Positions 3,679 through 31,181 of a stretch of 39,501 nucleotides of DNA are shown piece by piece. Within the stretch, counting starts at the first letter, position 1, and every line of letters begins with the position of its first letter. Source of the DNA: Bdellovibrionota bacterium (lineage in GTDB: Bacteria > Bdellovibrionota_C > UBA2361 > JBIKWN01). A program made the position numbers and the translations under genes. The stretch is from assembly GCA_044356295.1 (NCBI GenBank), contig JBIKWN010000018.1, positions 1-39,501 on the forward strand, in the 5' to 3' direction. The notes beneath the pieces were generated by a model. That model did no database searches and had not been told where the DNA came from. It saw only the letters and a list, made by a program, of their open reading frames with translations.

Positions 3679-3758
3679 AGGTTTAAACTACTTGAACTAT
3701 TGGTTTTTGTCTATCCGTGAACCGATACTAGCATAACTTAGAATCTTTATCCCCCTTT

Positions 3759-3786
3759 CCCGTGACCGTAGGCGTGAGCGTGAGCG
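3759..3786. repeat. hexamer-based repeat tract (CGTGAC/CGTAGG/CGTGAG) upstream of the four-helix-bundle gene
   Basis: cccgtgaccgtaggcgtgagcgtgagcg; its core is the reverse complement of cacgctcacgcctacg at 4281-4296. Confidence 0.85.
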
Positions 3787-3838
3787 AAAAAATCAAAAAA
3801 ACAAGCAACTCTCACCAAATTTTATCGAATACCATAAT

Positions 3839-4179
3839 ATGTTTAGTCACGAACGTCTTGATGTCTATCATCGATCATTAGAATTGATGGATATGCTAAT
3901 CCCAATAGTAAAAGCTATCCCAAAAGGAAATAGAGAATTAGTAGACCAACTAAAAAGAGCAAGTATTTCGTTGGTTCTTAACATAGCTGAAGGGGCTGGA
4001 AAATCAGCGATTGACGACAAAAAACGATTTTACTCGATAGCGAGAGGTTCTACTTTAGAATGTGCTGCAATACTGGATTTATTACTCCCTGGGGTATTTT
4101 AAATGATGAGACTATAGCGATGGTAAAGAATAAACTTCTTCAGATTGCTTCAATGCTTTCGAAGCTAATTCTTAGATAG
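3839..4179 (+). pseudogene. four helix bundle protein (23S rRNA IVP / TIGR02436-like), frameshifted near codon 80-86
   Basis: FSHERLDVY, DQLKRASISLVLNIAEGAGK, FYSIARGSTLECAAILD. Frame 0 stops at 4102, but the -1 frame continues GILNDETIAMVKNKLLQIASMLSKLILR to TAG at 4179, the expected last helix. Confidence 0.8.
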
Positions 4180-4228
4180 TGATTGGTCACCCTCAAGCCT
4201 ACGGCTACTGTCTTCAAATGAAGAATAT

Positions 4229-4313
4229 TACCCCCGTGAACCTGACCTTGAGCGTGAGCTTGAGCTTAAATTATCTGGGTCACGCTCACGCCTACGCTCA
4301 AGGTCACGGGGTA
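4229..4313. repeat. imperfect hairpin built from the same hexamer units
   Basis: Left arm tacccccgtgaacctgaccttgagcgtgagcttgagc and right arm gggtcacgctcacgcctacgctcaaggtcacggggta are imperfect reverse complements. A further degenerate arm lies at 4186-4204. Confidence 0.85.
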
Positions 4314-4333
4314 GAAATACCTTAACTTAATGA

Positions 4334-10737: not shown

Positions 10738-12375
10738 ATGAATACAAATCCAGCCCGCCCGGAAACCTCATCCCTGACTACCAATCCACACACTAAAATC
10801 CTCATCATCGGCGGAGGCATCCACGGCGCAGCCCTTGCACGAATCGCCGCCCTAAACGGCACAGACTGCCTTCTGTTAGAGAAACAAGATTACGCTTCCG
10901 GCACCTCCTCACGTTCTTCAAAAATGGCGCACGGTGGACTTCGCTATCTTGAGACTTTTGATTTTCAACAGGTTTTCGAAGGTATCAAAGCCCGCGAACA
11001 ACTATTTGATGAAGCACGGCACATCTGTAAACCTGATCGGTTTTTGATTCCGGTTCAGAAAAATGACTGGTGGTTCAGAGTCAAGCTTGGAATTGGGTTG
11101 TACCTCTACGATTTAATGGTAACGATGAAAGAGCGTCGCCACGGATGGATTAATAGAAAAGATCTTACATTCGACGGATTCCATTCAGGGCGTACTGACC
11201 TGATGGGATGCTATTCGTATTGTGATGGAATTTTCAACGATGCTCGACTTGTTGTTGAAACTGTTGTGCACGCTCGTGAACTTGGTGCGCGTTGTTTTAA
11301 CTATATCGGTGTCGAATCAGTTAAAAAACTTTCTTCAGGCAAATTTGAAGTTACTGCAAAAGATGAGATCACAGGTGATGCATATACTTTGACTGCTGAT
11401 TTGGTGGTTAACTGTACTGGACCTTGGGCTCCATTTATTGGACATGAAGAAAGTAAGCCGCTTGCAAAACAGCTTCGTTATAGTGCCGGCATACATCTGA
11501 TTTTTAATCGTCCATGGAATCAACCTTCCCTATTCCTTCCAATGGAGCAAAAAAATCGGTACTACTTTGTTTGGCCGCATCCAGGTGGGACAATGGTTGG
11601 AACAACTGAGCGTGAAGTCACCGGTGTTCCGCTAGAACAATTTCCAGTTGAATCAGAGATTCAAGAAGTTCTTCAAAGAGTTACAAAAGATCTTCCTGAT
11701 GCTGGGCTCAATCAAGAGTCGCTTCATTATGCTTTTGCAGGTGTCCGAACACTTCCACTTCGTGACGAGAATGCTCAGGGGACTGCTACACTTTCGAGAA
11801 AACATATCTGGAAAAACCAAGCAGGCGTACTAACTTTGCTTGGCGGCAAATGGACGACTTCTTCTTGGACATCGTTTGAAGGTTACAAAGAAGCGATGAA
11901 GATGTTAGGTCTCGACGCGAGTAATGCAAAAAGTTTAACAGGTGTTAAGTTCCCTGGTTGGGCAACGGATCAAGAGCAAACAGATCTGAGAAATGCTCTT
12001 ATTAAAAAAGGAGTTTCCGAATCAACCGCAGGTAGGATTGTTAGGCGCTTAGGATCACGTGCTAAATATCTTTTAGAAAATGATTCAAGAACTGAACTAC
12101 TAACTCCAAATTTATTACGCGGAGAAGTTGAGCTTGCAATTAAAGATGAACAAGCAATGACTGTTGAAGATATTTTGCGCCGCCGCACCGAGATTGAGTA
12201 TATGAACGGAAGTGGAATTGATGAAGTTGCCAAAGTGCAAGAAGTGCTTTCGAACTTTACTTCTGCTTCTCATGCGAAGAGCTCAGCTGATGGGTATGTT
12301 GAGCGGATTCGGAAGATATTTAAGCTTATTGGGAAGAAGGATTCTGGGGCTGTGTCGGATAAGCGGGCGGCTTAG
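10738..12375 (+). CDS. glpD: FAD-dependent glycerol-3-phosphate dehydrogenase/oxidase
   Basis: IIGGGIHG, GTSSRSSKMAHGGLRYLE, DARL, GVRTL, GGKWTT, EDILRRRT. Confidence 0.92.
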   Translation: MNTNPARPETSSLTTNPHTKILIIGGGIHGAALARIAALNGTDCLLLEKQDYASGTSSRSSKMAHGGLRYLETFDFQQVFEGIKAREQLFDEARHICKPDRFLIPVQKNDWWFRVKLGIGLYLYDLMVTMKERRHGWINRKDLTFDGFHSGRTDLMGCYSYCDGIFNDARLVVETVVHARELGARCFNYIGVESVKKLSSGKFEVTAKDEITGDAYTLTADLVVNCTGPWAPFIGHEESKPLAKQLRYSAGIHLIFNRPWNQPSLFLPMEQKNRYYFVWPHPGGTMVGTTEREVTGVPLEQFPVESEIQEVLQRVTKDLPDAGLNQESLHYAFAGVRTLPLRDENAQGTATLSRKHIWKNQAGVLTLLGGKWTTSSWTSFEGYKEAMKMLGLDASNAKSLTGVKFPGWATDQEQTDLRNALIKKGVSESTAGRIVRRLGSRAKYLLENDSRTELLTPNLLRGEVELAIKDEQAMTVEDILRRRTEIEYMNGSGIDEVAKVQEVLSNFTSASHAKSSADGYVERIRKIFKLIGKKDSGAVSDKRAA

Positions 12376-12397
12376 GGGACGCTCACCTTTATATCTA
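12373..12397. repeat. left end of the ~82-bp TIR element (copy 1, partial), overlapping the stop codons of glpD and ATPase 1
   Basis: taggggacgctcacctttatatcta, identical to 17361-17385. Confidence 0.9.
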
Positions 12398-13561
12398 AAT
12401 AGCCTTCAACAAAAACTTCTTAGGATCTTTTGACTTTAACAGTGCTTCACCAGTTTCAAGATCAATCGTTACACACTGCGCTCCTTTAAAAGCATCTAAA
12501 AATGCTTTTGTGCCTTTCAAGTTTTTTTTTCTACCTGATTTTATTTCTATACCGAGTATAAGATTATCAAGCTTTATGACGAAATCTATTTCTCTATTAT
12601 CCTCTCTCCAATAAAAAACTTCTGAAAAATTATTCACAAGACATGCACCAATGGCTGCTTCGAATACTCTTCCTTTCCATTCAGGATCATTTAGTAATCT
12701 AGACGGGGATTCAAACGCATGAACGAGTGCTGGGCACAGCGGAATAAGTTTGGGGCTTGAGCTTTTCAAAGTAATTGCGCGAGTCGAAAACTTTGGAAGA
12801 CTTTTAATTATGAATCCAGCTTCAAGAAGTTCTATATATCCTCTTATTGTAGTTGTATTTCCAGAATCCTGTAGTTGTCCAAGTAATTTTTGAAGTGAAA
12901 TTTCTTGCGCAGGATGACGACAAATAAGCTCCAATGTCTGTCTAAAAAGTGCTGGCTTTGAGATCTGCTTTAAAGAGAGTAGATCTCGAGAGAGTACAGG
13001 TTCAATAATAGAATCTCTCAATAACTGCATCCATCTTTTGGGTTCATCGATTATTGCCGCAGGTGCCGGATATCCACCAAATTGAAGATACTGGTCTAAA
13101 TTCCAATTTGAAAGTTTAATATGTTCTTCGAATGACCAGTGTGGAACTCGTATTAGCTCGTATCGCCCACTCAATGTTTCTGATAATCCTGATTGAATAT
13201 GCCAACTTGCAGACCCAAGAAGTATTACTTGCAATGGAATTTCTTTGCGTCGTTCTTTGTCATACAGTTCTTTTATCGTTTCACTCCAACCTTTGACTTT
13301 TTGAATTTCATCTAAAATTAAAATTGTTTTTTCGCCTGCGAGAAGAGCTTTTTGCCACTCAGCTATAATCCACTCAGCACCAGGGGGAACCGGTGAATCT
13401 GCGGTTGCATACACTACACTGCGCTTTAATGATTTAGAAAGTGAGAGTACCCCAGTCGTTTTACCAACTTGCCTTGGTCCGATAACGACTTGAATGAAAG
13501 GAAGACATTCGCGAATTCTTTTGATGAGTTCGGTTTCAAAATATCTTGTGATTATAGGCAC
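12395..13561 (-). CDS. AAA_14 ATPase with DUF4143 / PD-(D/E)XK C-terminal domain (copy 1)
   Basis: Walker A GPRQVGKTT, Walker B ILDEIQ, GGYP, FEAAI, REIDFV...IEIKSG. Confidence 0.9.
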   Translation of the reverse strand: MPIITRYFETELIKRIRECLPFIQVVIGPRQVGKTTGVLSLSKSLKRSVVYATADSPVPPGAEWIIAEWQKALLAGEKTILILDEIQKVKGWSETIKELYDKERRKEIPLQVILLGSASWHIQSGLSETLSGRYELIRVPHWSFEEHIKLSNWNLDQYLQFGGYPAPAAIIDEPKRWMQLLRDSIIEPVLSRDLLSLKQISKPALFRQTLELICRHPAQEISLQKLLGQLQDSGNTTTIRGYIELLEAGFIIKSLPKFSTRAITLKSSSPKLIPLCPALVHAFESPSRLLNDPEWKGRVFEAAIGACLVNNFSEVFYWREDNREIDFVIKLDNLILGIEIKSGRKKNLKGTKAFLDAFKGAQCVTIDLETGEALLKSKDPKKFLLKAI

Positions 13562-13644
13562 TTACTATGAGCTCCTAGGGTTTTTCTTCAGTCTATCTCG
13601 GATAAATCTTCATTGCAACTCGTATTTTTAGTACCGAGGTAAAT

Positions 13645-13728
13645 TCGGACAAACACCTTAGTATTTACTTAATCTTAAATAGCCCAAAATTAATAAATTC
13701 AAATACTTGTAAAGGTGAGCGTCCCCTA
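13645..13728. mobile_element. ~82-bp MITE/REPIN-like element (copy 2, degenerate left end)
   Basis: ggacaaacaccttagtatttacttaatcttaaatagcccaaaattaataaattcaaatacttgtaaaggtgagcgtccccta aligns along its whole length with copies 3 and 4. Confidence 0.8.
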
Positions 13729-13732
13729 GGTC

Positions 13733-14857
13733 TTAAACCATCTTTTCCAACTGACAAAAAATCCTAAACGGCAAAACATGTATAGTGCCATCCATGTATT
13801 GTTCCTCTGCTTCAAAATGAACTTGATAAAACTTAGGAATATTCGTTCTATCTTTATAATATCTAATACTTTTTGAAATCTGTTTTGCTCCCGTTTTGCA
13901 TTCAACTGCAAATATCGGTTTTCCTTCGCGAAGAACTACAAAATCGATCTCTCTGCCATCAACATCTTTAAGATATCGTAGATCCATTTTTGCCCCTTCT
14001 GTATCTTCGAGAAAGTTACAGTATTTAAGCAGATGCGAGGCAACTACGTTCTCAATTCTTGCACCTTTGTCTTCTATTGTTGACCAATCCCATAAATAAA
14101 GTTTAGGTGTTTTCTTTACAGCCCGAATTTTCTTAACACCATAAGGATAAATTCTGTAACAAAAATATACTTGCTCGAGAAGCATAATCCAGTGAGACAC
14201 ACTATTAGGGGATACTTCAAGGTCTTCTTGTAAAGACTTAATCGAAAGTGCCGCGCCAACCTTCTGAGGTAACATATCAACAAGTAGTTCAATCATTGAT
14301 ATTTCTTTAACACGACTAAGATCATTAACATCCTGCAAGACAACACGGCTCACTCTTTCTCGCTGCCATCTCTTTAAAAAAATCTTACTTTTCTTCAAAA
14401 AAGGTTCTGGAAAGCCACCGAATTCAATGAGTGTTTCAAGCGTTTTGCTTCCACAATGAGGATCGATTTCTGGCAATGTAAAAGGATGAAGACGATAATA
14501 AAAGATCCTTCCAAACAGCGAATCACCGCCTTTACGAAAATGATCAAGTTGTGCAGAACCAGTGACTATAATTTGTAGCTTTTGCTTATACTTATCGTAT
14601 AAACCTTTCAATAACATTCTCCAGCGAGCATATTTATGAATTTCATCGAGCACTACTATACCAAGTGTCGGATCAATTTGGTGAGATTTGATTTTCTGAC
14701 GATCAGCAAGATCATCCCAGTTTAAATACTGGTTATTGTGTTTTGTATAGTGCTTTGCAAGTGTCGTTTTCCCAACTTGTCGTGGCCCTCCAATAATTAC
14801 AATTTTCTCGACTAAATCAGTTTTAACATACTGTTGGAGATACCGAGTAATATTCAT
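13733..14857 (-). CDS. AAA_14 ATPase with DUF4143 / PD-(D/E)XK C-terminal domain (copy 2)
   Basis: GPRQVGKTT, VLDEIHK, TGSA, GGFPEP, ENVVASHL, REIDFV...VECKTG. Confidence 0.9.
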   Translation of the reverse strand: MNITRYLQQYVKTDLVEKIVIIGGPRQVGKTTLAKHYTKHNNQYLNWDDLADRQKIKSHQIDPTLGIVVLDEIHKYARWRMLLKGLYDKYKQKLQIIVTGSAQLDHFRKGGDSLFGRIFYYRLHPFTLPEIDPHCGSKTLETLIEFGGFPEPFLKKSKIFLKRWQRERVSRVVLQDVNDLSRVKEISMIELLVDMLPQKVGAALSIKSLQEDLEVSPNSVSHWIMLLEQVYFCYRIYPYGVKKIRAVKKTPKLYLWDWSTIEDKGARIENVVASHLLKYCNFLEDTEGAKMDLRYLKDVDGREIDFVVLREGKPIFAVECKTGAKQISKSIRYYKDRTNIPKFYQVHFEAEEQYMDGTIHVLPFRIFCQLEKMV

Positions 14858-14860
14858 ACA

Positions 14861-14913
14861 ACTGAATTTTACTCACTACTAAAATTCAGTCAAGTGAATT
14901 TTAGTAGTAAGTA
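14861..14913. promoter_or_regulatory. overlapping inverted repeats upstream of ATPase 2 (putative operator)
   Basis: actgaatttt-N10-aaaattcagt (14861-14890) overlaps tactcactactaaaattca-N6-tgaattttagtagtaagta (14870-14913, one mismatch). Confidence 0.6.
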
Positions 14914-14936
14914 TGGAGACGCTCAACAGGGCGGCT

Positions 14937-15024
14937 TAGGGGACGCTCACCTTATATATCTACTTGATATCAGGTAGACCAATTTAATAAATTCAATTAC
15001 TTGCAAAGGTGAGCGCCCCCCCTA
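14937..15024. mobile_element. ~82-bp MITE/REPIN-like element (copy 3)
   Basis: taggggacgctcacctt...aaggtgagcgcccccccta TIRs with internal palindrome tctacttga-ta-tcaggtaga. A stray degenerate end (tggagacgctcaac) lies at 14914-14927. Confidence 0.88.
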
Positions 15025-15067
15025 AATGACCGTGCGCTTACGCCCTAATAATTTTTCCTAAAATTAC

Positions 15068-15098
15068 CACACACCCTAAGAATCCTTCGTATAACCAT
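15068..15098 (+). promoter_or_regulatory. shared bipartite motif ACA-N16-TATAACCAT
   Basis: cacaca-ccctaagaatccttcg-tataaccat, 46 nt before ATG 15145; same spacing as three other copies. Confidence 0.45.
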
Positions 15099-15144
15099 TA
15101 TTAGTACAAAGGTTTTTCATAATTAGGTTAATTAAGGATTTATT

Positions 15145-16686
15145 ATGGTTAGTGCTGCAATGTCCAGTCCACATTTCAATCATCAACATACCCAGCAACA
15201 TACAAAGCCATCACAGCAATCACTTATTCAAGCATTAGATGGATATTTAAATGCGATTCTTAAAAATCGTCGTACGGTTCACGAACCAAGTGATCCTCAA
15301 AAAAATCAATGTGGTCCTGTTGTTGATCTTAGGGCAAGTGGAACGAAAACATACGTTGTAGGGGATATTCATGCTAACTTAGAAAACCTTGATAAGATTC
15401 TTAGCAATTCAAAAATGCTTAAAGAGCTTCAAGAAGGAAAAGCAAATCTTGTTTTTCTTGGTGATATTATACACCCTCAAGAAGGTGATATGTCACAGAT
15501 GGATACTTCTTTAGCAGCACTTGCAAAAGTGGCAGAGCTAAAAGCAAGATTTCCATCAAATGTTCATATCATTACTGGAAATCATGATTTTCTAAATCAA
15601 ACTTTCTCTAAGGGCGGTATCAGTCAATCTAAAATATTTAGAGAAGCATTAAGTCAATACGGTCAAAAAGCATTACATCTTTATGATCAGATTATACAAA
15701 ATAATCCACTTGCAGTAATAACAGACCATGCAACATTTGCTCACGCAGGACCAATTGTAAATAACGTACCAGGTGGGGATCTAAAAAATATTCAAGTAAG
15801 TGACACTCCACTAAGAAGCGAGAGCGCTAAAGTTACCGATCCACAATGGCAGGCTACGTTTAGAAGACCAGGGCAAAGCGACTCATCAAACCACGGGTAT
15901 CAAGATCACGATGTTGACCGATTTTTATCTAACATTTACGGCGAAAACATTGATGACAAACTTTTAATCTGCGGCCACACCACACCAACTAATGGATTTT
16001 TTGATAAAGATCTTTCAGATACTAGTAAACTGAGGTTACTAGACAGTTCACGTACACAAGAAGGGTCGTCGGGATATATACAGTTAGAAGAAAATGGAAA
16101 AATTATTCAACATAATTTTTCAAAAATTAAATCAGCGCCTGTCAATTTAGATCAAGATACTCCACTTAATAACGAATCGATTCAGTCTGGGGATTTTTGG
16201 GACAAACTTAAAAAATCATTGGGAGGATTATTAGGTAATGTCAATTATGGAGTTGATCGAATATTGGATCAGTCTAGAAATCCTAATCAACAAACATCTG
16301 AGCAGACTAATACACATGTTGCAGCATCACCATTACAGATTGCTCAAAATGCTGGCAGTAATCGAACTTGTCACATGATGACACCGAATATGCCTTATGG
16401 GTGTATCTATAATATGTTAGCCGAGTTTTCAAATCATTCTAGCGAGTACGGAATAAAATCAGCTCTAGAAAACAAATATCTTCCAAGTGAAATTATCAGT
16501 AATTTCATTAATGTAGATAGTAACGGTAATTACTTTTTTTCAGAAAGCTTGCCGCAGTTTTTTGATTTTCTAAAACTATCTTTGAGAGATTCAAGATTTA
16601 GTAGTGCTCAATCAGATTTTAATAAACTCTCAATAAATGCATTTCACGAAGCATCAAGTTTCTTAAGATCTAAAGGAGGATACTAA
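15145..16686 (+). CDS. calcineurin-like metallophosphoesterase with long C-terminal extension
   Basis: VGDIHAN, FLGDIIH, TGNHD, FAHAG, CGHT metal-binding motifs; about 190 aa of unassigned C-terminal sequence. Confidence 0.85.
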   Translation: MVSAAMSSPHFNHQHTQQHTKPSQQSLIQALDGYLNAILKNRRTVHEPSDPQKNQCGPVVDLRASGTKTYVVGDIHANLENLDKILSNSKMLKELQEGKANLVFLGDIIHPQEGDMSQMDTSLAALAKVAELKARFPSNVHIITGNHDFLNQTFSKGGISQSKIFREALSQYGQKALHLYDQIIQNNPLAVITDHATFAHAGPIVNNVPGGDLKNIQVSDTPLRSESAKVTDPQWQATFRRPGQSDSSNHGYQDHDVDRFLSNIYGENIDDKLLICGHTTPTNGFFDKDLSDTSKLRLLDSSRTQEGSSGYIQLEENGKIIQHNFSKIKSAPVNLDQDTPLNNESIQSGDFWDKLKKSLGGLLGNVNYGVDRILDQSRNPNQQTSEQTNTHVAASPLQIAQNAGSNRTCHMMTPNMPYGCIYNMLAEFSNHSSEYGIKSALENKYLPSEIISNFINVDSNGNYFFSESLPQFFDFLKLSLRDSRFSSAQSDFNKLSINAFHEASSFLRSKGGY

Positions 16687-16763
16687 TATGTAAAGTCTAT
16701 TTCAGGTTATTCAATTTAAGTTTTTAGAATTTAATATTTTTTTAGGTTTAATTTAGAGGTTTT

Positions 16764-17327
16764 ATGGATTTATTACAAAAACAATCAGAGCTGAGGGAAG
16801 ATGTTGGACACGCAACGTTAAAGGATCGAAATAAATTTGCGTATATGCGAATGATAGAGATGGATCTGTCAAACATTAATAAAAGTGAAGCAATCAAAGA
16901 TTCACTCGATGCACTTGAAAGAAAAATAAAACAAACACATAACGCAGGCGCAACAATTCAATACACTGATAAATCAAATCCAAATTATACAGTGACGGTA
17001 AAATCCACCTTTGACCAAGAAGGGAAACGAAATGGATATGAAATTCAAATATTTGATATAGACCCAAACAAAGAGGCGATAGGTGTACAATTTGGAAAAA
17101 GTGCTGGGAGAGGTACGCATACATCGATAAAATTTGATTTAAATAAAAAAGCTATTGAAGCTGTGACTAGTAGCGCTTCAAGATCTGAAAGAAATCATCG
17201 CGCTATACAAACAGAAGATACGGGTAAATATTTTCATATGATTAATTTAGATATTATTCATGGAAAGGGCCCACAATACAGCCTTCCAAGCTTGTTTCAA
17301 CTTGAAAGAGTTTTAGCAAGAAAGTAA
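16764..17327 (+). CDS. hypothetical protein
   Basis: 187-aa ORF with AGAGGT RBS before the ATG; no recognisable domain. Confidence 0.7.
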   Translation: MDLLQKQSELREDVGHATLKDRNKFAYMRMIEMDLSNINKSEAIKDSLDALERKIKQTHNAGATIQYTDKSNPNYTVTVKSTFDQEGKRNGYEIQIFDIDPNKEAIGVQFGKSAGRGTHTSIKFDLNKKAIEAVTSSASRSERNHRAIQTEDTGKYFHMINLDIIHGKGPQYSLPSLFQLERVLARK

Positions 17328-17360
17328 TAAGGTAAATAATCCCCATGAATTTTATGTGTT

Positions 17361-17447
17361 TAGGGGACGCTCACCTTTATATCTACCTGATCTCAGGTAG
17401 ACCAAATGAATAAATTCCAACACTTGTAAAAGTGAGCGTCCCCCTTA
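17361..17447. mobile_element. ~82-bp MITE/REPIN-like element (copy 4, best preserved)
   Basis: taggggacgctcaccttt...aaaagtgagcgtccccctta; internal palindrome tctacctga-tc-tcaggtaga. Confidence 0.88.
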
Positions 17448-17489
17448 TGATAGGAACGATTCTCTGCTACCATCCCCATGAGGCTTTGA

Positions 17490-17771
17490 TTCCTATCAAT
17501 AGCATCAGGAGGTTATGAAATACAAAGAGTTGAATGCACGAGCTGCTCCGGGACCGGGAAAGTAAATTTCTGCAACGGAGGATGCAACTATGGACAGATC
17601 ATGTGTACTTACTGTTCAGGTGGACAAGTACAAACTACAAATTGGCAGGGCGAAACGGTTTATGAAACCTGTAGAAGCTGTATAGGCGGATACACGCGAT
17701 GCTCAAAATGTGGTGGTAATGGACGAATGGACTGTCAAACTTGCTACGGTTCAGGTTCAGTTTATCAATAA
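17490..17771 (+). pseudogene. DnaJ-type cysteine-rich (CXXCXGXG) zinc-finger ORF lacking a canonical start
   Basis: Manual translation: ...EIQRVECTSCSGTGKVNFCNGGCNYGQIMCTYCSGGQVQTTNWQGETVYETCRSCIGGYTRCSKCGGNGRMDCQTCYGSGSVYQ*. In-frame TGA at 17487-17489. Not in the ORF track. Confidence 0.7.
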
Positions 17772-17815
17772 GTAGGAAGGAATTTATTTCTTCTGACGAC
17801 TAAAGGTTAAACCTG

Positions 17816-17849
17816 TTGAGACTCCAGGCGGAAAATGAGTCTCAATTTT
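17816..17849 (+). terminator. hairpin followed by a short T-run after the zinc-finger ORF
   Basis: ttgagactc-N12-gagtctcaa-tttt. Confidence 0.4.
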
Positions 17850-17890
17850 ACTTCTATTTAGCTTCATCAGTTCGCTGACTATTATACAGC

Positions 17891-17906
17891 AAGTGATCGT
17901 CCCCTA
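17891..17906. repeat. isolated right end of the TIR element (copy 5)
   Basis: aagtgatcgtccccta versus aagtgagcgtcccc in copy 4. Confidence 0.65.
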
Positions 17907-18099
17907 GTCTCTCAGCTCTGAACGATGTTTTAGAATTTGACTAGATATTCCATTTATTATACTTATTTAGTTGCTACATTCAGATCACAGAATCTTTCAT
18001 TTGTTTAGATTTGAAAATCAATTCTTCTAAGATCTTCATGTCGTATTTTTACAATTTATTTTTTAACACTGCACATAAGATATTAAAAATATTAAAAAT

Positions 18100-18564
18100 A
18101 TGATGAGATTCGAACCAAATTTTACTGCTAAAATTGAACAATGTGGTGGACTAGAACTACTCGATCACTCGGCCATGTCTGTTACTTCATATAATGAGAA
18201 ATCACTTCAGTCCCTCAGACTACATGGGAATCAGCTTACTTTTTTCTCTATAACCCAATCTTTAGATGACCCTAATAACGAGAGATTTGGTATCATAGAT
18301 ATTGATGTTTCAAAATTAAATGGAACAGCAAAATACTTATATTCATCTTCATCTGATAAAGCTACCTTGGCAATTCTTTTCGATGGAAATTATCCTATGA
18401 AATTCGCTCGAAAAGAGGATCCTATGATGACAAGTTCGACTTGCTGGGGGATGTCAATCGATTTTGCAAATCATGCAGATGCCAAGAAATTTTTATCTGC
18501 TTTTACTCAAACAGTTATACCACTCCATGTCATTAACATCCCCGGCACCGAAGCATATTTATAG
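18100..18564 (+). CDS. hypothetical protein
   Basis: 154-aa ORF in AT-rich flanks; no recognisable motif. Confidence 0.6.
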   Translation: MMRFEPNFTAKIEQCGGLELLDHSAMSVTSYNEKSLQSLRLHGNQLTFFSITQSLDDPNNERFGIIDIDVSKLNGTAKYLYSSSSDKATLAILFDGNYPMKFARKEDPMMTSSTCWGMSIDFANHADAKKFLSAFTQTVIPLHVINIPGTEAYL

Positions 18565-18903
18565 AAAATATTTATTTACATTTTTTTCCCTTAGTGTTGG
18601 GCATAAGTCCCTCTTGGTGTTAGCAACAGTCCTATAGAATTTTTTGGAAAAAATGAATTGATATTTATGATGATTGAGGTGTAGCGGCTCCAGCTTGATG
18701 AAGTTTTGAAAAACAACCTACAACCCAAAGCATAGATTCTAATTAATTTTGTTAAAAGATTATTAAATTCCAATAGCAACGTACTTTAGATGTACTGGGA
18801 TCAGAAGAAACGTTTCCGTAAAGGGAATTACGAATTGAGGCAAAGGTCAATATTTGAGTAGCAATTTAAATTATGTTAAAAAATAATTTTCAAAGGTAGT
18901 ACT

Positions 18904-20394
18904 ATGAACGATTTTCAAGATATTAATCACACCCCTAGAATTCAAAAAATTTCCAACCTTGAAATGCCTAGGTTGCAAGAACCGGAAGAAGGTTTCAAAC
19001 CGCTTGGCTTTAAAGACAAAGCACCTACTGTGAGTGAACTCGTTCAGAGCATATGCACAGGGTATGGGCTTCATCAAAATCGACTTGGAATATCGTATCA
19101 AAGCTATGATCTTGATCCGATTGAAGAATCAAAAAATACTTCAAAGAAACTGCAAGACCTACATAATCGTACTGCAGGATTATCGATGACCTGTAATGTT
19201 GGACAACAACATATCATCCAACAATCAATTCGTGCGCTCGTATTACACCCTCTCCTATTAGATGATCCTGCTCGTTCAGAAAAGTTTGTAGATAAAATTG
19301 TTAATTATGTAAAAAGTATTGAAAACTTAGATGATCATAATTTTGCAGGTATTTCTCAAACACATTCTTTTCTCATGGAAATAAGTTTCTTTGATAAATC
19401 TCAAAAATTGAAAATAAGAGAGATGCTTAATGCTGTAAAACTTGGAATCAAAGATGGTGGCGGTGCATTTATTCTTGCTGAATCAGAAAGATTTTATAAT
19501 GCAGTTGAAGACATTCCTTATCAAGAGATTGGGTTTTCAGTCAAAAGCCTTGAGGCATTACTTGATTCAGCAACAAGAATAAATGTGAATGAACCTCTCA
19601 CCCCAGGGGATCGCGTTGATTATCAAAAAATTATCTCAAAATACCTACTGCAGTTAATGGAAAAGAATCACTCCCTGGCGATAACGGGATGGGATAACTG
19701 GAGAGAGTCACCAGAGGCAATATCTATACTTTACCGCGTTTTAACAAACGATGCAGATATAAGTAGTCAAATTACTTTTTATGATTTTGATGATAATTTC
19801 AATCTCATAGAGTATTACTCAAATAGTAATCAAACTTGGCGAGTGCTTCCTGTCTTAAGAGGTGAGCCTTGTTATAAAGTTTTCAATCCATTTTCTCTTT
19901 TATCGCATGATGCTCATGTGAGAACGTGGGAAGGCTTTTACAATCGGCCTGAAGGACTGGCGGGATGCTTCGCGACTAATCGAGCTCAATATGCTGACTT
20001 TCCGAATTCTACAATTGCCACGTTGTATAGCGAGGATAATCTTACAGAACAAACTTACCAAGGACGTCAATGCCGTCCAGCAGCGACACTAATATTCAAC
20101 AATCAAATATTTGATACCATTCTTTTCGATGGAAAATTAGAAACGGCTACTGCAGTAAAAGCAATTTTTAATTATGATAATTACTTCGGCGCAGTCGCCA
20201 TGTTAAAATATCAAAGAATTCTACCGTTTATAAACGGTAGATTTATTACAGAGGTTCCGGAAGGTGAGATTTTAGAATTTAATCCATATCATTCTAATGA
20301 GAATATGATAATCGGTACCGGTACAGTCAAGCGGGCGAATGGCGAAATAGTTCAGTTCGGCGATTTAGAAGTTATAGCAAGAAGATATATATAA
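18904..20394 (+). CDS. hypothetical protein
   Basis: 496-aa uninterrupted ORF with AAGGT RBS; no recognisable domain. Confidence 0.8.
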   Translation: MNDFQDINHTPRIQKISNLEMPRLQEPEEGFKPLGFKDKAPTVSELVQSICTGYGLHQNRLGISYQSYDLDPIEESKNTSKKLQDLHNRTAGLSMTCNVGQQHIIQQSIRALVLHPLLLDDPARSEKFVDKIVNYVKSIENLDDHNFAGISQTHSFLMEISFFDKSQKLKIREMLNAVKLGIKDGGGAFILAESERFYNAVEDIPYQEIGFSVKSLEALLDSATRINVNEPLTPGDRVDYQKIISKYLLQLMEKNHSLAITGWDNWRESPEAISILYRVLTNDADISSQITFYDFDDNFNLIEYYSNSNQTWRVLPVLRGEPCYKVFNPFSLLSHDAHVRTWEGFYNRPEGLAGCFATNRAQYADFPNSTIATLYSEDNLTEQTYQGRQCRPAATLIFNNQIFDTILFDGKLETATAVKAIFNYDNYFGAVAMLKYQRILPFINGRFITEVPEGEILEFNPYHSNENMIIGTGTVKRANGEIVQFGDLEVIARRYI

Positions 20395-22234: not shown

Positions 22235-23281
22235 TTACTGTTTATAGATTTCTTTTCGAAGCTTCTCTGATTGACTCTTCATCGCCTGATCAAAGTCTAG
22301 TAGAGATTGTATGCCTTTCATCCAACTCTCGTAATTACCTACGATAAAAGTTTGTGGCGTAACATCAGGAATCTTGATCTCAGAAGTAGTATCTTTTAAG
22401 CCTTTGGCGAATGTACTATTGGTCGCTGCTTGATAGGCGATTAATCTTTGATTAAAAACATCCACAGGAATCAACTCAGTAGCATCAGCATTTTCTGCAA
22501 CGCGGTCGACAGCTGCAACATCACTCGTGTTAGCTCCCCAGCCTTGATAAATTCTCACATACTGACGAATGGTACCGTCTGAATCTTTCTTTTCTACAAC
22601 TCCCAGCACCGTCACTTGATGAATACTATCCTTGGAACCAGGTAACCAATTTAAAGTAGCAAAAAGTGGTGGAGATTTTGCTATGGCATCAGCATTATTC
22701 AAGAGAGAACTAAAAACTTTTGCTTTATCCGATTCACTCCCTATACCGATGTAAGATTGCCCAAAGATCGTTGAGAACATTTCAGATGACTTAGCAATGG
22801 TTACGCCAGATTCTGTTTGTGTTTGACCGTTTTGATCTTTAAACGTACGACTTACAGTGAAAGATTTAGTAATTGACTCCTGGAAAATAGACTCTACTTG
22901 ATCACGAGCAGCGAAATTCCCAGTAGGGTCAACCTGTTCAGGTTTTAATGTAAGCGTAATCCTAGCACCATTGACAACGGTATGACCTTTAATAGCTAAA
23001 TCTGAACAGATTCTTGCTAACTCAGCGGGGTCACGCTTTGCAAGAGCATACATAGCAGCAGCAGAAACACAGTCTGAACTAATCCCTTGGTTAATCTTGC
23101 TAGGATCATTTATTAGTTCCCGAAGCTCATTGGCAAATTCAGAACCTATACCCTTTTGACAATTACCTTTGTCGATTGCATCTTGGATACGTTGTAATTC
23201 CCTCTCAATGAAAGCGTTATTAGGTAATTCAGCCTTAGCGCTTCCTGTTGTATGTCTTACGGTTTCTTCTAATTTAGTCAT
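22235..23281 (-). CDS. putative papain/calpain-like cysteine protease
   Basis: INQGISSDCVSAAAMYAL (Gln + Cys), IHQVTVLGV (His), VRIYQGWG (aligns with the calpain-type xNPWG motif). Confidence 0.55.
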   Translation of the reverse strand: MTKLEETVRHTTGSAKAELPNNAFIERELQRIQDAIDKGNCQKGIGSEFANELRELINDPSKINQGISSDCVSAAAMYALAKRDPAELARICSDLAIKGHTVVNGARITLTLKPEQVDPTGNFAARDQVESIFQESITKSFTVSRTFKDQNGQTQTESGVTIAKSSEMFSTIFGQSYIGIGSESDKAKVFSSLLNNADAIAKSPPLFATLNWLPGSKDSIHQVTVLGVVEKKDSDGTIRQYVRIYQGWGANTSDVAAVDRVAENADATELIPVDVFNQRLIAYQAATNSTFAKGLKDTTSEIKIPDVTPQTFIVGNYESWMKGIQSLLDFDQAMKSQSEKLRKEIYKQ

Positions 23282-23298
23282 ATAATTAATACGAAACG

Positions 23299-25194
23299 TT
23301 ATGCTACTTTTTCATTAGACGATACTGAAGAATTGGAGCTAGGTTTTCCCCTACTCTTTTTCTCACGTTCAAGTTCCTCGAAGTATTCACCATATGTTTT
23401 ACTTTTTGCAGTTGTAAAATCTCTTTTGGTTTCTCCCATTTTTATTGAAGTCTCACGTTCTCTTTCAAATGAATGTGCATGGAAATCATCGCTATTTCCT
23501 TGCGAAGGAATATCATCATTTTTTATGCCTTTTTTCTTCTTTGCACCGTCTATGTCTGCATCTTTAGGTCGTTTATCTTTTTTATTTTTGATCTTCATTC
23601 TTTCAGTAAGTTTTTTACAAGAACGATGCACCCCTTCTTCAAATCCTTCTTTACTAGCTGTTTTTATATCTGCACCAAATGATTCATCAACAGCTACACC
23701 ACGTGAATCAAGGAGTTGAGTCATCTCATCAACAGCTTCATTGAAACGAGTGTGATATGCCTTGGAAAAAGGTGAATCTTTAATGGTGTCAGTTAAACCT
23801 GAGGCGATACCATCTTTAAATGCTAATCTATCTGTTTTCGAGAACTTCCATCGGTCATTAGCAATTTCACGACATGCTTTTGCAAGTTTTGCTCGCTCTG
23901 CAGGGGGCAAATGAGCATACTCAGAATCTATAATTTCCTTAAAGAATGAAATGTCTTTTTGTTTTAGTTTGCGTAATCCATGCTCTTTTACTTTTTCTGC
24001 AAGAGCATTTAGAGAAGCTTCTACCTCTTTTTCTGATAATGCTTTACTTCCCTTGAGCGTTCTCGAAAGTAGATTTTGATTTTCTCGGAATAAATTTTCT
24101 GCAGCTTCTTTGAATAAAGCATCTGTACTTTCTTCGCCAACTTTAGTTGCTGATTGCTTCACTGCATCGCAAATGATCTTCTTGACCGGATCTGATGACA
24201 AATATTGTGCAAGCTCTTTACCAAGTTCTTCAGGAAGCTTTTGTGTAGCATTTTTTAAGATTCCATCCTTTGCCAGTTGTTGAAGCGCTTGCTTTGTACT
24301 TTCCTCTAAAACATTCTCAGCAGTTGCAGAAGCAAGCTTTGAAGTTGCCCATTGCTGAACAACATCATCAACAGATGATCGCATCGCTGAGGCAACAGTA
24401 TCTGCTGCTGCATTGCCGAGAGCGACCTGTCTTTCAGTTGAAACAAGTAATTTAGTAATTAAGGAACCGCCTTCTTTTCCTACGACTGATCCAGTAACTT
24501 GCATTGCTTCTTTGGCAACACTTTTATAAAGAAGTGGATTAATCATTGCACGTCCAGTTTGTAATGCAGCATTTGCCTGACCAAATGAATAAACCGTCAT
24601 TGCTAGTTTTGCACCACCCCAGAGGAGCTTACTAAATCCTTCACTGAGCCTTGTATTATCACCACTTTTCCAAGCATCGATAAGTATTGAAAGCCCTTGA
24701 TAGATATCAGTGACGCCAACTGTATTCCCAATTTTTTCGATACCCTTACAAAGGTTTTCCCATGCACCATTAAGATCTCCAGTAAATAGACATGCTATCG
24801 ATTTACCAATATCAAACAAACCAAAGCCATCTATCAACGATATAACTGTGTCTTTGATAAAGTTAGAAACCTGAGGAACCAGACTTCCTAAGGATATTTT
24901 TATTCCAGACATATTGTCCCAGATCGTAGACCAAAAAGAAGGATCTGATTTTTCAATTTCTAAACAATTTTTGCCTGTAAGAGGGGGATACTGATTTGAA
25001 AGTGATAAAGATGAGTTAGCAGGGTTTATAACCTGTAGGTTTCCATTTACAGGATATTTAACTTCGTATTGTAGCGGGCTTTTAGGTGTATTAGGTAAGT
25101 TTGAAAATTGAATTGGTTGAGTGGCAACATTTGAAACATCAATGACATTAATGTCACTACTGTCTGCTTTTTTAAATTCGAGTTGTCCTGCCAT
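23299..25194 (-). CDS. hypothetical helical protein with hydrophobic Gly-rich segments
   Basis: 631 aa; hydrophobic/amphipathic stretches in about aa 90-215, Ala/Lys/Glu-rich helices, charged tail; GAGGT RBS. Confidence 0.8.
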   Translation of the reverse strand: MAGQLEFKKADSSDINVIDVSNVATQPIQFSNLPNTPKSPLQYEVKYPVNGNLQVINPANSSLSLSNQYPPLTGKNCLEIEKSDPSFWSTIWDNMSGIKISLGSLVPQVSNFIKDTVISLIDGFGLFDIGKSIACLFTGDLNGAWENLCKGIEKIGNTVGVTDIYQGLSILIDAWKSGDNTRLSEGFSKLLWGGAKLAMTVYSFGQANAALQTGRAMINPLLYKSVAKEAMQVTGSVVGKEGGSLITKLLVSTERQVALGNAAADTVASAMRSSVDDVVQQWATSKLASATAENVLEESTKQALQQLAKDGILKNATQKLPEELGKELAQYLSSDPVKKIICDAVKQSATKVGEESTDALFKEAAENLFRENQNLLSRTLKGSKALSEKEVEASLNALAEKVKEHGLRKLKQKDISFFKEIIDSEYAHLPPAERAKLAKACREIANDRWKFSKTDRLAFKDGIASGLTDTIKDSPFSKAYHTRFNEAVDEMTQLLDSRGVAVDESFGADIKTASKEGFEEGVHRSCKKLTERMKIKNKKDKRPKDADIDGAKKKKGIKNDDIPSQGNSDDFHAHSFERERETSIKMGETKRDFTTAKSKTYGEYFEELEREKKSRGKPSSNSSVSSNEKVA

Positions 25195-25217
25195 AAAACC
25201 TCATCAACTATATATAC

Positions 25218-25248
25218 ATAGTTATGTTTTAAAGCCTAAAAATGTAAC
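25218..25248 (-). promoter_or_regulatory. shared bipartite motif GTTACA-N16-CATAACTAT
   Basis: Minus strand gttaca-tttttaggctttaaaa-cataactat, upstream of ATG 25194. Confidence 0.6.
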
Positions 25249-25281
25249 ATATAATATTACCATCTAACTTATTGCAATTAC

Positions 25282-28197
25282 TCATCTATTTGATCTTAGA
25301 GCGTGTATGAGAAAATCTTTTTTAAGCTTTATCGCTTCTAATTCAAGGCTATTCGAGATTCCACTTACTTTCCTTTCATATGCAATCAAAATTCTGGAAG
25401 TAGGTGGATGATCTTTCGTATCGAAACCAAATTCTTCAAGTACTTGTGGAAGTCTAAAATTCGAAAATCTATCACTCACAATTCGTTCTAGACTGAAACT
25501 TTTTTCGCGTATTACTGTTGGTTGTTCTTGCTTAGGGTTAAGAGAGACAAGCGTGGGCTCAAAACCTTCAATTTTTCTAATCGTAGGAACTGCAGATTGA
25601 AGTTCAAGAGCACGATAAATACCAAAGTGTTTAGCAAGCACTGCTCTTGCTCTATAAAAAGTTTCGATATTGAATCTGTATATTTTTCTGTTTTCCCATT
25701 CAAATGTAATTTCATCTCTATCTGTCTGAACAACCTTTTCACTAGTGCCATCATATTGACCCTTTTGATTTACTGGTATGAATTTCCCTCTTTGTGCCCA
25801 ATCATGTCCCGATTCTTTCCTATCTTTTTCATATCCCATGAGCCACATGATCTCATCTTGATGAGCGTCCATGTATCGCATCTCACGTTTTAATGCGACA
25901 CCCATACGTCGATAATCCTCTTCACCCGCATAGTATAAAAAAGCGGCAGCGAATTTTGGACGAAGCACAGGACTTCCATCAATGTTATATATGGGATTAC
26001 CTGATTTATCTTTTACTTCAATCACCTCACCATAAAAAGTAGGCATGTTAATATACTTTGCCTCTTCCATATGAATGTCAGAAACAGCTTGCCATTCAAA
26101 AGAATAGTTATCTTTGCCGTCTCGACTTTTATATGCAGTTAAAGTATTTAACATTGGGATCGAAACACCTAATGCCGGCACAAACACATCCTTAAATGTA
26201 TATTTAATGCTTCCCACTCGTGCTTCTGGTAAATTTTTATATCTTGGGTCATCAAGTGCTTGTATTGATTCAGCGTGATGTTCAGATGCAATACCATCAC
26301 GAACAATGACTTCACTATCAAGTTCAAGTTTGGCGGTCCCTACTCGCGATCTAGTAGAAGATTCAGTAGTATCCAAATCAAAATTGTATGTCCCATTCTG
26401 AATATTTTCATTTATCCCGTCGCATTCATACCAACGACGAGTGAATTGGGCGTCTATGGCAGAATAAAGTGCAATTCCCCCTGTCTTCATAGCAGAGGTA
26501 ACGACTCTCTGTTGTTTAAAAACAGTACCCCTATCCATCCAATATCCAAGTGTTCCAGCAATCTGCTGAACCACCCAGAAATGTTGACGAACACTCCCCT
26601 TACTTCCATTACCGCTCAGATCATGTTGGACTGCTAGGTTTATATCTATGAGTATATGTCCCGAAATTCTTGTTACAGCTGCAGAATATTGACTTTTTCC
26701 TCTGAGGTTATGGAATGAAACGAGTTGTCCATAATCAATAACTTCTTGTGGTGCGAAATCATTCAAACGTCTAAAGAGTATCTCCATCTCACTACGAAGA
26801 CCCGGCGTATCTTTTACTTGATATCTAAATACAGCACTTCTCTCTGGTACTGCCTCAGGAAAATTTTTAAAGTGAGGACCGACTAGTGCTTGCGGGTTTG
26901 TCGCAACTAGAGAAGATCCAATGTTATTCTTCCTTAGGTCAGGGCGTGGCTTTTGTCTATCTTTTACTGGGCACCCAGCTGGGCTAAGAATTCTTCCATT
27001 AACGAGTGACATTGCGTAGTCACGCATGAGTTGAGAGTGTGTCAGCCCCTTACTATGATCAATCTTTCTAGAAATTTCTAAATTGATAGGTTCACCGCTG
27101 TGTGAAGGAACCTGAACAATTTCTATCATTTTTCCGGTCCCGCTTGGCGCATGGGTTGGAAGTCCGAATCCAGCTAACGCATTATCCCGTTGATAATCAT
27201 AGACATTTTTTGCAAAACGATCTGAGACTTCATACGTATAAAGACCTAAATCAAACGAATCACCTGTTTGTGGATCTGTCATGAAAAATGGTTCATACAG
27301 ACTTCTTCCACTACAATCCTTAAGGTAATCTTGACTCGCTTCTTCAGTAGTATATGGGAGCGCCATATCACTTTCACCCGAAGAATCAATTTTTGCAGAC
27401 TGAAGAAAAAAAGTGATATCACTTACTGCTCGTTCACCTGTTTGCATGACTGCAACTTCTGAACTCTGTATTACAGACAATCCAGAAAGCTCTTCATGTG
27501 GTGCTAGTGCTTCAAGTGAATTTGCTAAGGATGCTACCATATCGCGAAAGACACTTCCCTTATCATATCCATTCGGGTATGGCTCACTCTTTGGCGTCAA
27601 GTAGGGCACTTCAACCATATGAAATTTTTCAGGATGGCCGACTATAGGATACCCTAAATAGTTGGATTGAATTACTGGCCCTCTTCCTTCTGGGGAATAA
27701 TAATCTGGGCATATTTTGGAAAATTCTACATGGTGACGACCAAGACCATTTTCTAAAGTAATCGAATTTTTTTCATCATACTGCGCTTTTTTAGATTTAA
27801 AATCTTTTGCCTTAGTAACACAAAGAAAAAATTGCTTTGGCACTTCGGTAGCAAACTCATCAAAAAATGCACCTGTAATTACTCCGAGCCGCGGTGAAAA
27901 AGATTGGTCCTCGCCGTCATATTTATCTTCCTCACTCAAAAGTTCAGGATGTTTAGAAATAAGATGATTAAACGCACGTGGATCATTTTCACTTATAATT
28001 TGTAAAAATTGATGATGTGGATTTATAAATCCGTGATTAATGTATGCTTCTGCAAGAGAAGTAATCAAAGTCACGCGGTAGCCATTAGCAGTTTCAATTG
28101 AAATAACTGTATCTTCAATAGGTTGATGAAATCTCTTGAAGTGGGCAGGTGCCTCCTCTTTAGTAGTAGGATCTATTTTTGCGAGGTGTTCAATCAT
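25282..28197 (-). CDS. large hypothetical protein
   Basis: 971-aa uninterrupted ORF with CAGGT RBS; no recognisable domain. Confidence 0.85.
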   Translation of the reverse strand: MIEHLAKIDPTTKEEAPAHFKRFHQPIEDTVISIETANGYRVTLITSLAEAYINHGFINPHHQFLQIISENDPRAFNHLISKHPELLSEEDKYDGEDQSFSPRLGVITGAFFDEFATEVPKQFFLCVTKAKDFKSKKAQYDEKNSITLENGLGRHHVEFSKICPDYYSPEGRGPVIQSNYLGYPIVGHPEKFHMVEVPYLTPKSEPYPNGYDKGSVFRDMVASLANSLEALAPHEELSGLSVIQSSEVAVMQTGERAVSDITFFLQSAKIDSSGESDMALPYTTEEASQDYLKDCSGRSLYEPFFMTDPQTGDSFDLGLYTYEVSDRFAKNVYDYQRDNALAGFGLPTHAPSGTGKMIEIVQVPSHSGEPINLEISRKIDHSKGLTHSQLMRDYAMSLVNGRILSPAGCPVKDRQKPRPDLRKNNIGSSLVATNPQALVGPHFKNFPEAVPERSAVFRYQVKDTPGLRSEMEILFRRLNDFAPQEVIDYGQLVSFHNLRGKSQYSAAVTRISGHILIDINLAVQHDLSGNGSKGSVRQHFWVVQQIAGTLGYWMDRGTVFKQQRVVTSAMKTGGIALYSAIDAQFTRRWYECDGINENIQNGTYNFDLDTTESSTRSRVGTAKLELDSEVIVRDGIASEHHAESIQALDDPRYKNLPEARVGSIKYTFKDVFVPALGVSIPMLNTLTAYKSRDGKDNYSFEWQAVSDIHMEEAKYINMPTFYGEVIEVKDKSGNPIYNIDGSPVLRPKFAAAFLYYAGEEDYRRMGVALKREMRYMDAHQDEIMWLMGYEKDRKESGHDWAQRGKFIPVNQKGQYDGTSEKVVQTDRDEITFEWENRKIYRFNIETFYRARAVLAKHFGIYRALELQSAVPTIRKIEGFEPTLVSLNPKQEQPTVIREKSFSLERIVSDRFSNFRLPQVLEEFGFDTKDHPPTSRILIAYERKVSGISNSLELEAIKLKKDFLIHALRSNR

Positions 28198-28221
28198 ATA
28201 ACCTGCTGACTTACTAGATCA

Positions 28222-31044: not shown

Positions 31045-31105
31045 AAGATTAACCTAATGAAATAGTTCGTAGTGAAAAGGAGAAAAGTAAACCTTTTGTC
31101 CTTAA

Positions 31106-31136: not shown

Positions 31137-31181
31137 TTTAAAAAAAGTAGAATTTTACCAATAGTTTCGGCTAGTTACGCA

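Follow-up and report, generated by a model that had tools for sequence, protein, structure and literature searches.

Hairpin repeats delimiting an accessory-gene array behind glpD in a Bdellovibrionota genome are copies of a dispersed, probably REP/REPIN-type family

When accessory genes stand in a row, separated by copies of one inverted repeat, are the repeats recombination sites that deliver the genes, or do they belong to a family with a life of its own? The 39.5-kb contig C60 of a draft Bdellovibrionota genome (contig JBIKWN010000018.1, assembly GCA_044356295.1) raises this question. Downstream of glpD, between positions 12373 and 17906, five accessory genes occupy four intervals delimited by a short inverted repeat, and a preliminary description of this DNA had proposed a non-integron gene-capture platform. 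Here we report an analysis of these repeats in the window (the entire contig, 39,501 nucleotides (nt)), in the genome (G000; 2.96 Mb, 128 contigs, 38.6% GC; the assembly is 93.6% complete and its contigs are often broken at repeats) and in other genomes and metagenomes. The array is a local cluster of a genome-wide hairpin-repeat family, and dedicated capture machinery is not supported. The elements are probably small non-autonomous repeats of the REP (repetitive extragenic palindromic)/REPIN (REP doublet forming hairpin) type, dispersed as one family and most like the terminal inverted repeats (TIRs) that flank Y1 (HUH) genes resembling RAYT (REP-associated tyrosine transposase) genes in TIRtrons (TIRYT genes), with the array being a repeat-rich variable region.

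The repeat unit is an arm of about 21 nt (consensus tAGGGGACGCTCACCTTTAtAA), and two inverted arms with a variable spacer of 25–105 nt form a doublet. The 13-nt arm core GGGGACGCTCACC occurs in the window at 12375 (+), 13714 (−), 14939 (+), 15008 (−, one mismatch), 17363 (+) and 17431 (−, one mismatch), and relic arms with two mismatches to the core lie at 14915 (+) and 17892 (−). Against these eight matches (at most two mismatches), 100 shuffles averaged 0.14 and never reached eight; the matches place repeat ends at all positions reported in the preliminary description. At the same threshold, no match was found in the window outside 12375–17904, as that description had also stated. The repeat features of the window are as follows.

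12373–12397, + strand: left arm of a split doublet, TAGGGGACGCTCACCTTTATATCTA; 26 nt from 12372 are identical to the left arm at 17360–17385 (repeat finder)
12393–12404: ATCT-AAATAGCC, left copy of a short direct repeat marking one inner junction of the split doublet; the final codons of ATPase 1, including its stop, are encoded within it
13672–13684: ATCTTAAATAGCC, right counterpart of this direct repeat, marking the other inner junction of the split doublet
13687–13728, − strand: long right arm belonging to the split doublet; its identity to the right arms of the other two copies (14981–15020 and 17404–17443) is 90%
14915–14927, + strand: relic arm, GGAGACGCTCAAC, two mismatches
14929–14953, + strand: second copy of a 25-nt exact direct repeat, with the first copy at 12365–12389
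14937–15024: complete doublet without cargo, inner palindrome at 14959–14978
17361–17447: complete doublet without cargo, inner palindrome at 17382–17401; closest to the copy at 14937
17892–17906, − strand: relic arm, two core mismatches, at the right edge of the variable stretch

The segment 13645–13728 had been taken for a full copy of the element, and it contains a right arm only. The arms at 12373–12391 and 13710–13728 are complementary over 19 nt at 100% and lie 1,318 nt apart (repeat finder); the left partner of the 13645–13728 arm is thus at 12373, and ATPase 1 is enclosed by a single arm pair. The 25-nt direct repeat consists of the final 8 nt of glpD and 17 nt of the arm. The longer right arm has the same orientation in all three window copies (family D1, 90% identity), in agreement with the earlier statement that the copies share one orientation. 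The stops of ATPase 1 (12395–12397) and ATPase 2 (13733–13735), as described before, and also that of glpD (12373–12375) lie inside an arm or at most 5 nt away, the TAG of glpD being bases 1–3 of the first arm.

The two complete doublets are predicted to form long hairpins, with energies of −18.2 kcal/mol for 14937–15024 and −21.7 kcal/mol for 17361–17447 (z = −5.9 and −8.1, respectively, relative to shuffles); a single arm folds weakly (−1.8 kcal/mol). The inner GTAG-containing palindrome, described as part of the consensus, is present in both of these doublets and in no other copy in the whole genome. Their spacers are 0.84 identical, against at most 0.76 to any other copy in the genome. That these two doublets are mutually closest and the sole carriers of the palindrome points to local duplication or local spread. 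An Rfam search of 12000–18500 gave no match to the arms and two sub-threshold microRNA look-alikes, on a different palindrome at 14842–14910, and a literature search for the 13-nt core returned one unrelated virology paper.

Like integron attC arrays, the locus has tandem accessory-gene intervals with imperfect inverted repeats between them that can fold when single-stranded. Unlike them, it has no adjacent IntI-type integrase; its gene orientations are mixed, the genes have promoter-like sites of their own, and the repeats are scattered through the whole genome beside housekeeping genes. Read directly, the arms and doublets have no RYYYAAC/GTTRRRY ends, which upholds the earlier exclusion of integron sites.

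The family is not local to the glpD locus. Counting the 13-mer core at up to one mismatch, we found 37 arms on 18 contigs of G000, and the 16-mer at up to one mismatch gave 36 matches against 0 for its reversed sequence, used as the control. Most copies are cargo-less doublets of 65–135 bp between ordinary genes; the genome has about ten short doublets, with spacers of 51–106 nt, and many singlets. Arm positions −1 to +19 are nearly invariant, a weaker TTGAA lies about 25 nt further in, and the spacers are unrelated between loci. Only one of the 37 arms, on C57, is inside an open reading frame (ORF), and arms very often abut or overlap stop codons, including those of glpD, iPGM, an amino-acid permease, a flagellin and several orphans. 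The ordinary neighbours (Pfam) comprise iPGM, rplT, gcvP, purA, a CtpA-type protease, the amino-acid permease, a 2-oxoacid dehydrogenase E2, two flagellins, SufE, PhzF, nuoL and glycosyltransferases, and toxin–antitoxin or defence-type neighbours comprise HipA/HTH, two PIN genes, BrnA, a nucleotidyltransferase and DUF4143 ATPases (four of eight paralogues). At least three further small repeat families occur in G000, clustering with one another and intermixed with the studied one. The BIMEs (bacterial interspersed mosaic elements) and REP clusters of enterobacteria are comparable as local groups of intergenic repeats in alternating orientation, an arrangement that the studied arms also show; the arm sequence is unrelated to theirs.

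The same arm in other genomes links the family to Y1 genes. A scan for the exact 16-mer in one genome per species returned at least 119 stretches, and 80 loci were fetched. An inverted pair within 200 nt was present at 27 of the 80, 26 of them in metagenome-assembled genomes (MAGs) of Steroidobacteraceae or other Gammaproteobacteria and one in an Acidobacteriota MAG; the other 53 were contig-edge singles of the same MAGs or chance coding matches in unrelated taxa (for example, a repeat coding for G-T-L-T-F). The arms number 168 in genome G031, 143 in G032 and 74 in G033, with 2–6 for the control, and a Pfam Y1_Tnp search revealed RAYT-like genes in all three, placed as follows.

G031 (locus L146): arm at 1104 (+), Y1_Tnp ORF at 1141–2079, arms at 1960 (−) and 2205 (−), with exact or one-mismatch cores
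G032 (locus L147): arms at 1354 (+) and 1377 (+), Y1_Tnp ORF at 1408–2205, arms at 2188 (−), 2210 (−) and 2232 (−), with exact or one-mismatch cores
G033 (locus L148): a two-mismatch variant of the arm around the only Y1 gene of the genome

At an estimated density of about one arm per 15 kb, such brackets of inverted arms around Y1 genes are not expected by chance. The preliminary description had suggested looking for a RAYT flanked by the same repeat; such genes thus exist in G031 and G032, with a variant in G033, and none of the four Y1 genes of G000 is one. The Y1 proteins of G031, G032 and G033 and the four of G000 have the HUH histidines and the Y..NP tyrosine in common. Their best NCBIfam match is 'REP-associated tyrosine transposase', below the cut-off (39–62 bits for the G000 proteins against a cut-off of 80).

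The bracketed Y1 genes of G031 and G032 follow the plan of REPtrons, and more specifically that of TIRtrons. In the available text of Di Nocera, De Gregorio & Rocco (2013; PMC3733652), a TIRtron has a TIRYT gene, RAYT-like in kind, between inverted repeats with the common motif GGGGWSAS; the TIR repeats make up moderately abundant families found in dimers and clusters, with hosts including Stenotrophomonas and Acidobacteria. The studied family corresponds to this account in its RAYT-like Y1/HUH genes bracketed by GGGG-starting inverted repeats (in G031 and G032), in its dispersed dimers and clusters, and in the Xanthomonadales-like Gammaproteobacteria and Acidobacteria among the examples given there. 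It differs in that some arm pairs of G000 enclose non-transposase genes and no Y1 gene of G000 carries the studied arms. In a comparison at the level of the motif, rare variant arms, GGGGACAG (C128 58764 and C57 23060), match GGGGWSAS fully.

With REPIN–RAYT systems, as far as the available text of Bertels & Rainey (2011; PMC3116915) and Nunvar et al. (2010; PMC2817692) describes them, the family has in common short repeats that pair in inverted orientation, across a spacer, into a hairpin, many extragenic copies, decayed singlets and a proposed mobilization in trans by a repeat-flanked Y1 transposase. The classical REPs of the same sources are self-palindromes of 20–40 nt with a GTAG or CGTC tag, unlike the studied arm, which is barely self-complementary and untagged and whose 37 copies are a low number.

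Several observations weigh against a REP/REPIN-type, TIRtron-like assignment of the family. None of the four Y1 genes of the G000 assembly is flanked by the studied arm, even at three mismatches; the Y1 link therefore rests on the other genomes, and in a 93.6% complete assembly of 128 contigs this result does not demonstrate the absence of an arm-bracketed Y1 gene. One would not expect unrelated phyla to have an identical 16-nt core if such systems are mostly inherited vertically, as the abstract of RAREFAN describes them. The first eight arm bases, GGGGACGC, match GGGGWSAS at seven of eight positions. The arm has no unpaired GTAG or CGTC tag, with CGTC internal to it and no GTAG; in the available text of PMC3733652, the GTAG/CGTC REP super-families consist of a palindromic unit with an 8–14-bp stem and such an unpaired tag at one end. 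About 9 of 26 places abut toxin–antitoxin or defence-type genes, which by count looks like enrichment. Most complete copies have TA on both sides, which would also suit a TA-duplicating DDE transposon. Finally, neither the split doublet nor the duplication of the 25-nt junction follows from a simple transposition of doublets.

Two Y1 genes of G000 have repeats of their own. The gene on C8 (3346–4317; L149 841–1815) stands between two sets of three copies of CTGTACCGGGGCTACT, one set direct and the other inverted; this family is nearly restricted to the locus, and all its seven arms are on C8. The gene on C79 (2655–3620; L174 856–1821) encodes a RAYT-like protein of 321 residues and lies between 23-nt inverted repeats of the TGGTACAARGTAACT type (L174 790–812 and 2049–2071), a family with 46 arms on 14 contigs, most of them in doublets with a distance of about 54 nt; C8 begins with a partial copy at 95% identity. 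The C79 locus looks like a complete TIRtron, and with its dispersed repeat family it indicates that G000 does run TIRtron-type systems. The cognate enzyme of the studied arms is then either unassembled, lost, or one of the four Y1 proteins acting without flanking arms. A self-BLAST of G000 for a multi-copy autonomous element with the studied ends found none. The DUF4143 ATPases were considered as partner enzymes and rejected: only four of eight paralogues are near arms, none lies near arms in the 80 outside loci, and homologues elsewhere are unbracketed.

The TA flanks raise the alternative that the arms are the ends of miniature inverted-repeat transposable elements (MITEs) of a TA-duplicating DDE transposon (IS630/Tc1-mariner type), with the gene-enclosing pairs as mobile insertion cassettes (MICs) moved in trans. 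MICs and Correia-type MITEs depend on DDE transposases and make target duplications. The studied elements are similar in being transposase-less units with two terminal inverted repeats, passenger genes or none, and TA ends: positions −2 and −1 are T and A in 22 and 29 of the 37 arms, and three arm pairs carry cargo of 1–1.4 kb and no transposase. They differ in that no copy has a flanking direct repeat longer than TA, which may itself belong to the repeat, and in that no cargo unit of the family has a second copy. In the G000 assembly we found no DDE_3 (IS630-type) and no DDE_Tnp_1 (IS4/IS5-type) gene, and its four rve-type genes are on contig stretches without arms. Moreover, the arms in gammaproteobacterial genomes are flanked by AAA/TTT rather than TA and bracket Y1 genes. 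We consider this alternative very unlikely.

The positions of the arms at gene ends suggest another possibility, that they are now mainly host-selected structures (bidirectional hairpin terminators, 3′-end mRNA stabilizers or protein-binding sites) whose mobility is extinct in this genome. The abutted stop codons, the strong predicted hairpins, the conservation of arms while spacers drift and the missing cognate transposase of the assembly would all fit such a role. However, a simple terminator scan was no richer than shuffles and did not call the doublets, the loops of which exceed 8 nt and so fall outside its rule, and the T-tracts after the hairpins are weak in G000; a simple promoter scan likewise gave no more sites than shuffles. 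Host selection would account for persistence, not origin, and is compatible with a TIRtron-like family. As the main explanation it is unlikely.

What, then, are the genes that lie between the repeats? The array and its flanks are as follows.

10738–12375, + strand: glpD, FAD-dependent glycerol-3-phosphate dehydrogenase (Pfam DAO and DAO_C); conserved left flank
12395–13561, − strand: ATPase 1, AAA_14 and DUF4143 (Pfam), PADLOC candidate PDC-S01 (E = 2e-126), within the arm pair 12373–13728
13733–14857, − strand: ATPase 2, AAA_14 and DUF4143, PDC-S01, flanked by two outward-facing arms
15145–16686, + strand: calcineurin-like metallophosphoesterase of 513 residues (Pfam Metallophos, E = 7e-11), no PADLOC match
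16764–17327, + strand: orphan ORF of 187 residues, no Pfam or PADLOC family
17490–17771, + strand: DnaJ-type CxxCxGxG zinc-finger frame, 93 codons from stop to stop, five CxxC pairs
18100–20394, + strand: two orphan genes of 154 and 496 residues; right flank of the array

The intervals do hold accessory genes, as first described. The two ATPases are 25% identical to each other. ATPase 1 is full length relative to its homologues, which are patchily distributed over the order (present in 34 of 91 genomes, at no more than 53% identity), and only one of 11 homologue loci has any flanking inverted repeat, of unrelated sequence. The metallophosphoesterase has a long C-terminal part without a family match. 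In the zinc-finger frame the first canonical start is at 17601, and a good ribosome-binding site and ATG at 17507–17517 (ATG at 17515) open a 16-codon ORF in another frame; the zinc-finger gene is therefore probably frameshifted. The array genes lie on both strands and have promoter-like sites of their own, and the GC content falls from 0.43 in glpD to 0.32–0.38 across the array. No recombinase or transposase was found among the 27 window ORFs scanned (Pfam).

Several further features concern these genes. G000 has eight AAA_14/DUF4143 (PDC-S01) paralogues with 20–46% mutual identity, in the window and on C87, C59, C68, C23, C93 and C128; across the order such genes are patchy and multi-copy (up to seven per genome) and often on short contigs. 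ATPase 2 has a promoter-like site, TTGACT-16-TAAAAT, on the minus strand (14893–14866), overlapped by the 14842–14910 palindrome and by TGAATTTTAGT-like repeated words, which together may be an operator. Further along the window (22235–39245) stand eight large minus-strand ORFs (348–1,221 residues) with no Pfam family at E ≤ 1e-4.

The slot behind glpD varies between species of the genus. GlpD is 79–81% identical in the same-genus genome G002 and in metagenome contig L155, and the genes downstream differ from those of the window: both have a GNAT-like gene there, and none of the five array genes is present at this locus in either. In L155 the GNAT-like gene is followed by homologues of the 154- and 496-residue orphans, 1–3.5 kb past glpD (tblastn, 46% and 28% identity). 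The different content in relatives indicates that the 5.5 kb from 12373 to 17906 fill a variable slot. No arm was found in the same-genus genomes G001 and G002, which are 62% and 86% complete, and their DNA downstream of glpD is not syntenic, so that breakpoints are not placeable at the strain level. Among 30 relatives in the order, one or two core matches in three genomes are at chance level, and the two in G014 lie in coding-like DNA without a partner arm.

Strain-level comparison relied on assembled contigs of other samples, in which rare variants are invisible, and the uncovered parts in samples X3–X5 are uninformative. Parts of the stretch occur in 17 public runs, 16 labelled as lake-water or freshwater metagenome and one as 'metagenome'; one of the 17 may be where this DNA comes from. 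Four of the window junctions are spanned by contigs, at least 99% identical, from three other samples.

glpD/arm/ATPase 1 junction: X3, 12274–12614; X4, 12230–12464
ATPase 2/relic arm/doublet junction: X4, 14795–15048
Doublet/phosphoesterase junction: X2, 14896–15460
Orphan/doublet junction: X2, 16883–17545

The window arrangement therefore exists beyond this assembly. The comparison across strains that the preliminary description had called for thus found a slot that varies among relatives and, among the contigs of the three other lake samples, no gain or loss of cassette size, with no contig joining across an absent interval. A candidate empty site at ATPase 1 (one X3 contig with a joint from 12393 to 13698) was rejected: its shorter side has 20 letters, 33 extra letters lie between, and the likeliest interpretation is a further doublet of the family aligned to both arms. 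Loose contig ends at 12373/12378 and 13691/13728 carry the flanks of the C120, C23 and C12 copies.

These results bear on whether the repeats are recombination sites delimiting the cassettes of a dedicated non-integron capture platform behind glpD. Such a platform would account for five accessory genes in four repeat-delimited intervals, for the position of 12373–17906 between glpD and the orphans that sit near glpD in L155, for the glpD/arm junction duplicated at 12365 and 14929, and for a 1.04-kb repeat-bounded unit that G000 carries twice (C113 and C23) with 87% identity and unrelated flanks. Yet most copies in the genome are cargo-less and beside ordinary genes, the window has no recombinase and the three Phage_integrase genes of G000 are on other contigs (C38, C116 and C18), away from arms. 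In addition, no window unit has a second copy in the genome, the gene orientations are mixed, the ATPase 1 homologues elsewhere are unbracketed and the contigs of three other samples carry the same junctions. We regard a dedicated platform as highly improbable. Copies scattered in ordinary intergenic regions, which had been named beforehand as grounds for giving up the idea, make up most of the family; some toxin–antitoxin or defence association and repeat-bounded rearrangements remain, through which gene capture survives in a weak form.

If the family is of the TIRtron-like REP/REPIN type, the array could have arisen as follows. By analogy with the enzyme family, a Y1/HUH enzyme would recognize folded arms on single-stranded DNA and insert copies of doublets between genes, for the most part directly behind stop codons; each doublet would form a long hairpin when present as single-stranded DNA or as RNA. 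The repeats would then mark gene boundaries because they can survive only between genes, not because they are cassette recombination sites. The slot downstream of glpD may be a variable region that acquired accessory genes, in which three close copies and two relic arms accumulated by spreading locally and by recombination of arms with one another. ATPase 1 would have split one of the doublets, or a doublet would have recombined around the gene, and the block of ATPase 1 and ATPase 2 (12365–14928) is bounded by the 25-nt duplicated glpD/arm junction. The split doublet and the duplicated junction would both fit recombination or insertion at arms.

Three arm pairs of the genome enclose 1–1.4 kb of cargo each and no transposase.

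C60, 12373–13728: ATPase 1
C107, 1698–2673: PDZ protein
C30, 663–1642: Gp49/HigB-like gene, cores at two mismatches

Together with the duplicated C113/C23 unit, these pairs leave room for passenger mobilization by the arms, as an unlikely possibility. A bolder reading would make the pairs around the ATPase, the HigB-like module and the PDZ protein REPtron-like units in which cargo has replaced the transposase, moved in trans and stacked by arm recombination into the array behind glpD, with the core shared by Gammaproteobacteria, an Acidobacteriota MAG and this low-GC freshwater bacterium marking an arm/enzyme system that spreads horizontally and is not inherited vertically. We consider this decidedly unlikely.

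The analysis averts a false claim of a new gene-capture system, and the TIRtron/TIRYT branch of REP–RAYT systems, which has been little studied, gains a clean example: a 16-nt arm core is common to very different bacteria and in G000 marks an apparently orphan family, with no cognate Y1 gene assembled. If arm pairs do move passengers, which is unproven, defence and toxin–antitoxin genes could be shuffled by way of HUH enzymes.

Further observations concern the unit and the repeat families that accompany the studied one. The two copies of the 1.04-kb unit (C113 3311–4345 and C23 66935–68003; 87% nucleotide identity) share the order studied-family doublet, C79-type doublet, 157-residue orphan gene and second C79-type doublet; the orphan gene copies are 85% identical in amino acid sequence, and the studied-family doublets have only the left arm in common. 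A fourth repeat family, with ends CTTAACTTAATGACATTGG and GTGAGCG-like short repeats inside, has about 50 arms genome-wide, among them C107 1559/1675/2679 and C80 2563/2677; its window copy (3734–4329) has 60-nt arms 476 nt apart and lies between scpA and a SpoU methylase gene. On C107 and C80 studied arms directly adjoin fourth-family ends. A palindrome family of 9-mers (GTAACGCGAAGGTCGCGAAG...), often at contig ends, has 99 arms on 56 contigs and a window copy at 39458, and at C12 39074, C74 27707, C128 58575 and C128 60862 a 9-mer palindrome lies 50–70 nt inside a studied arm.

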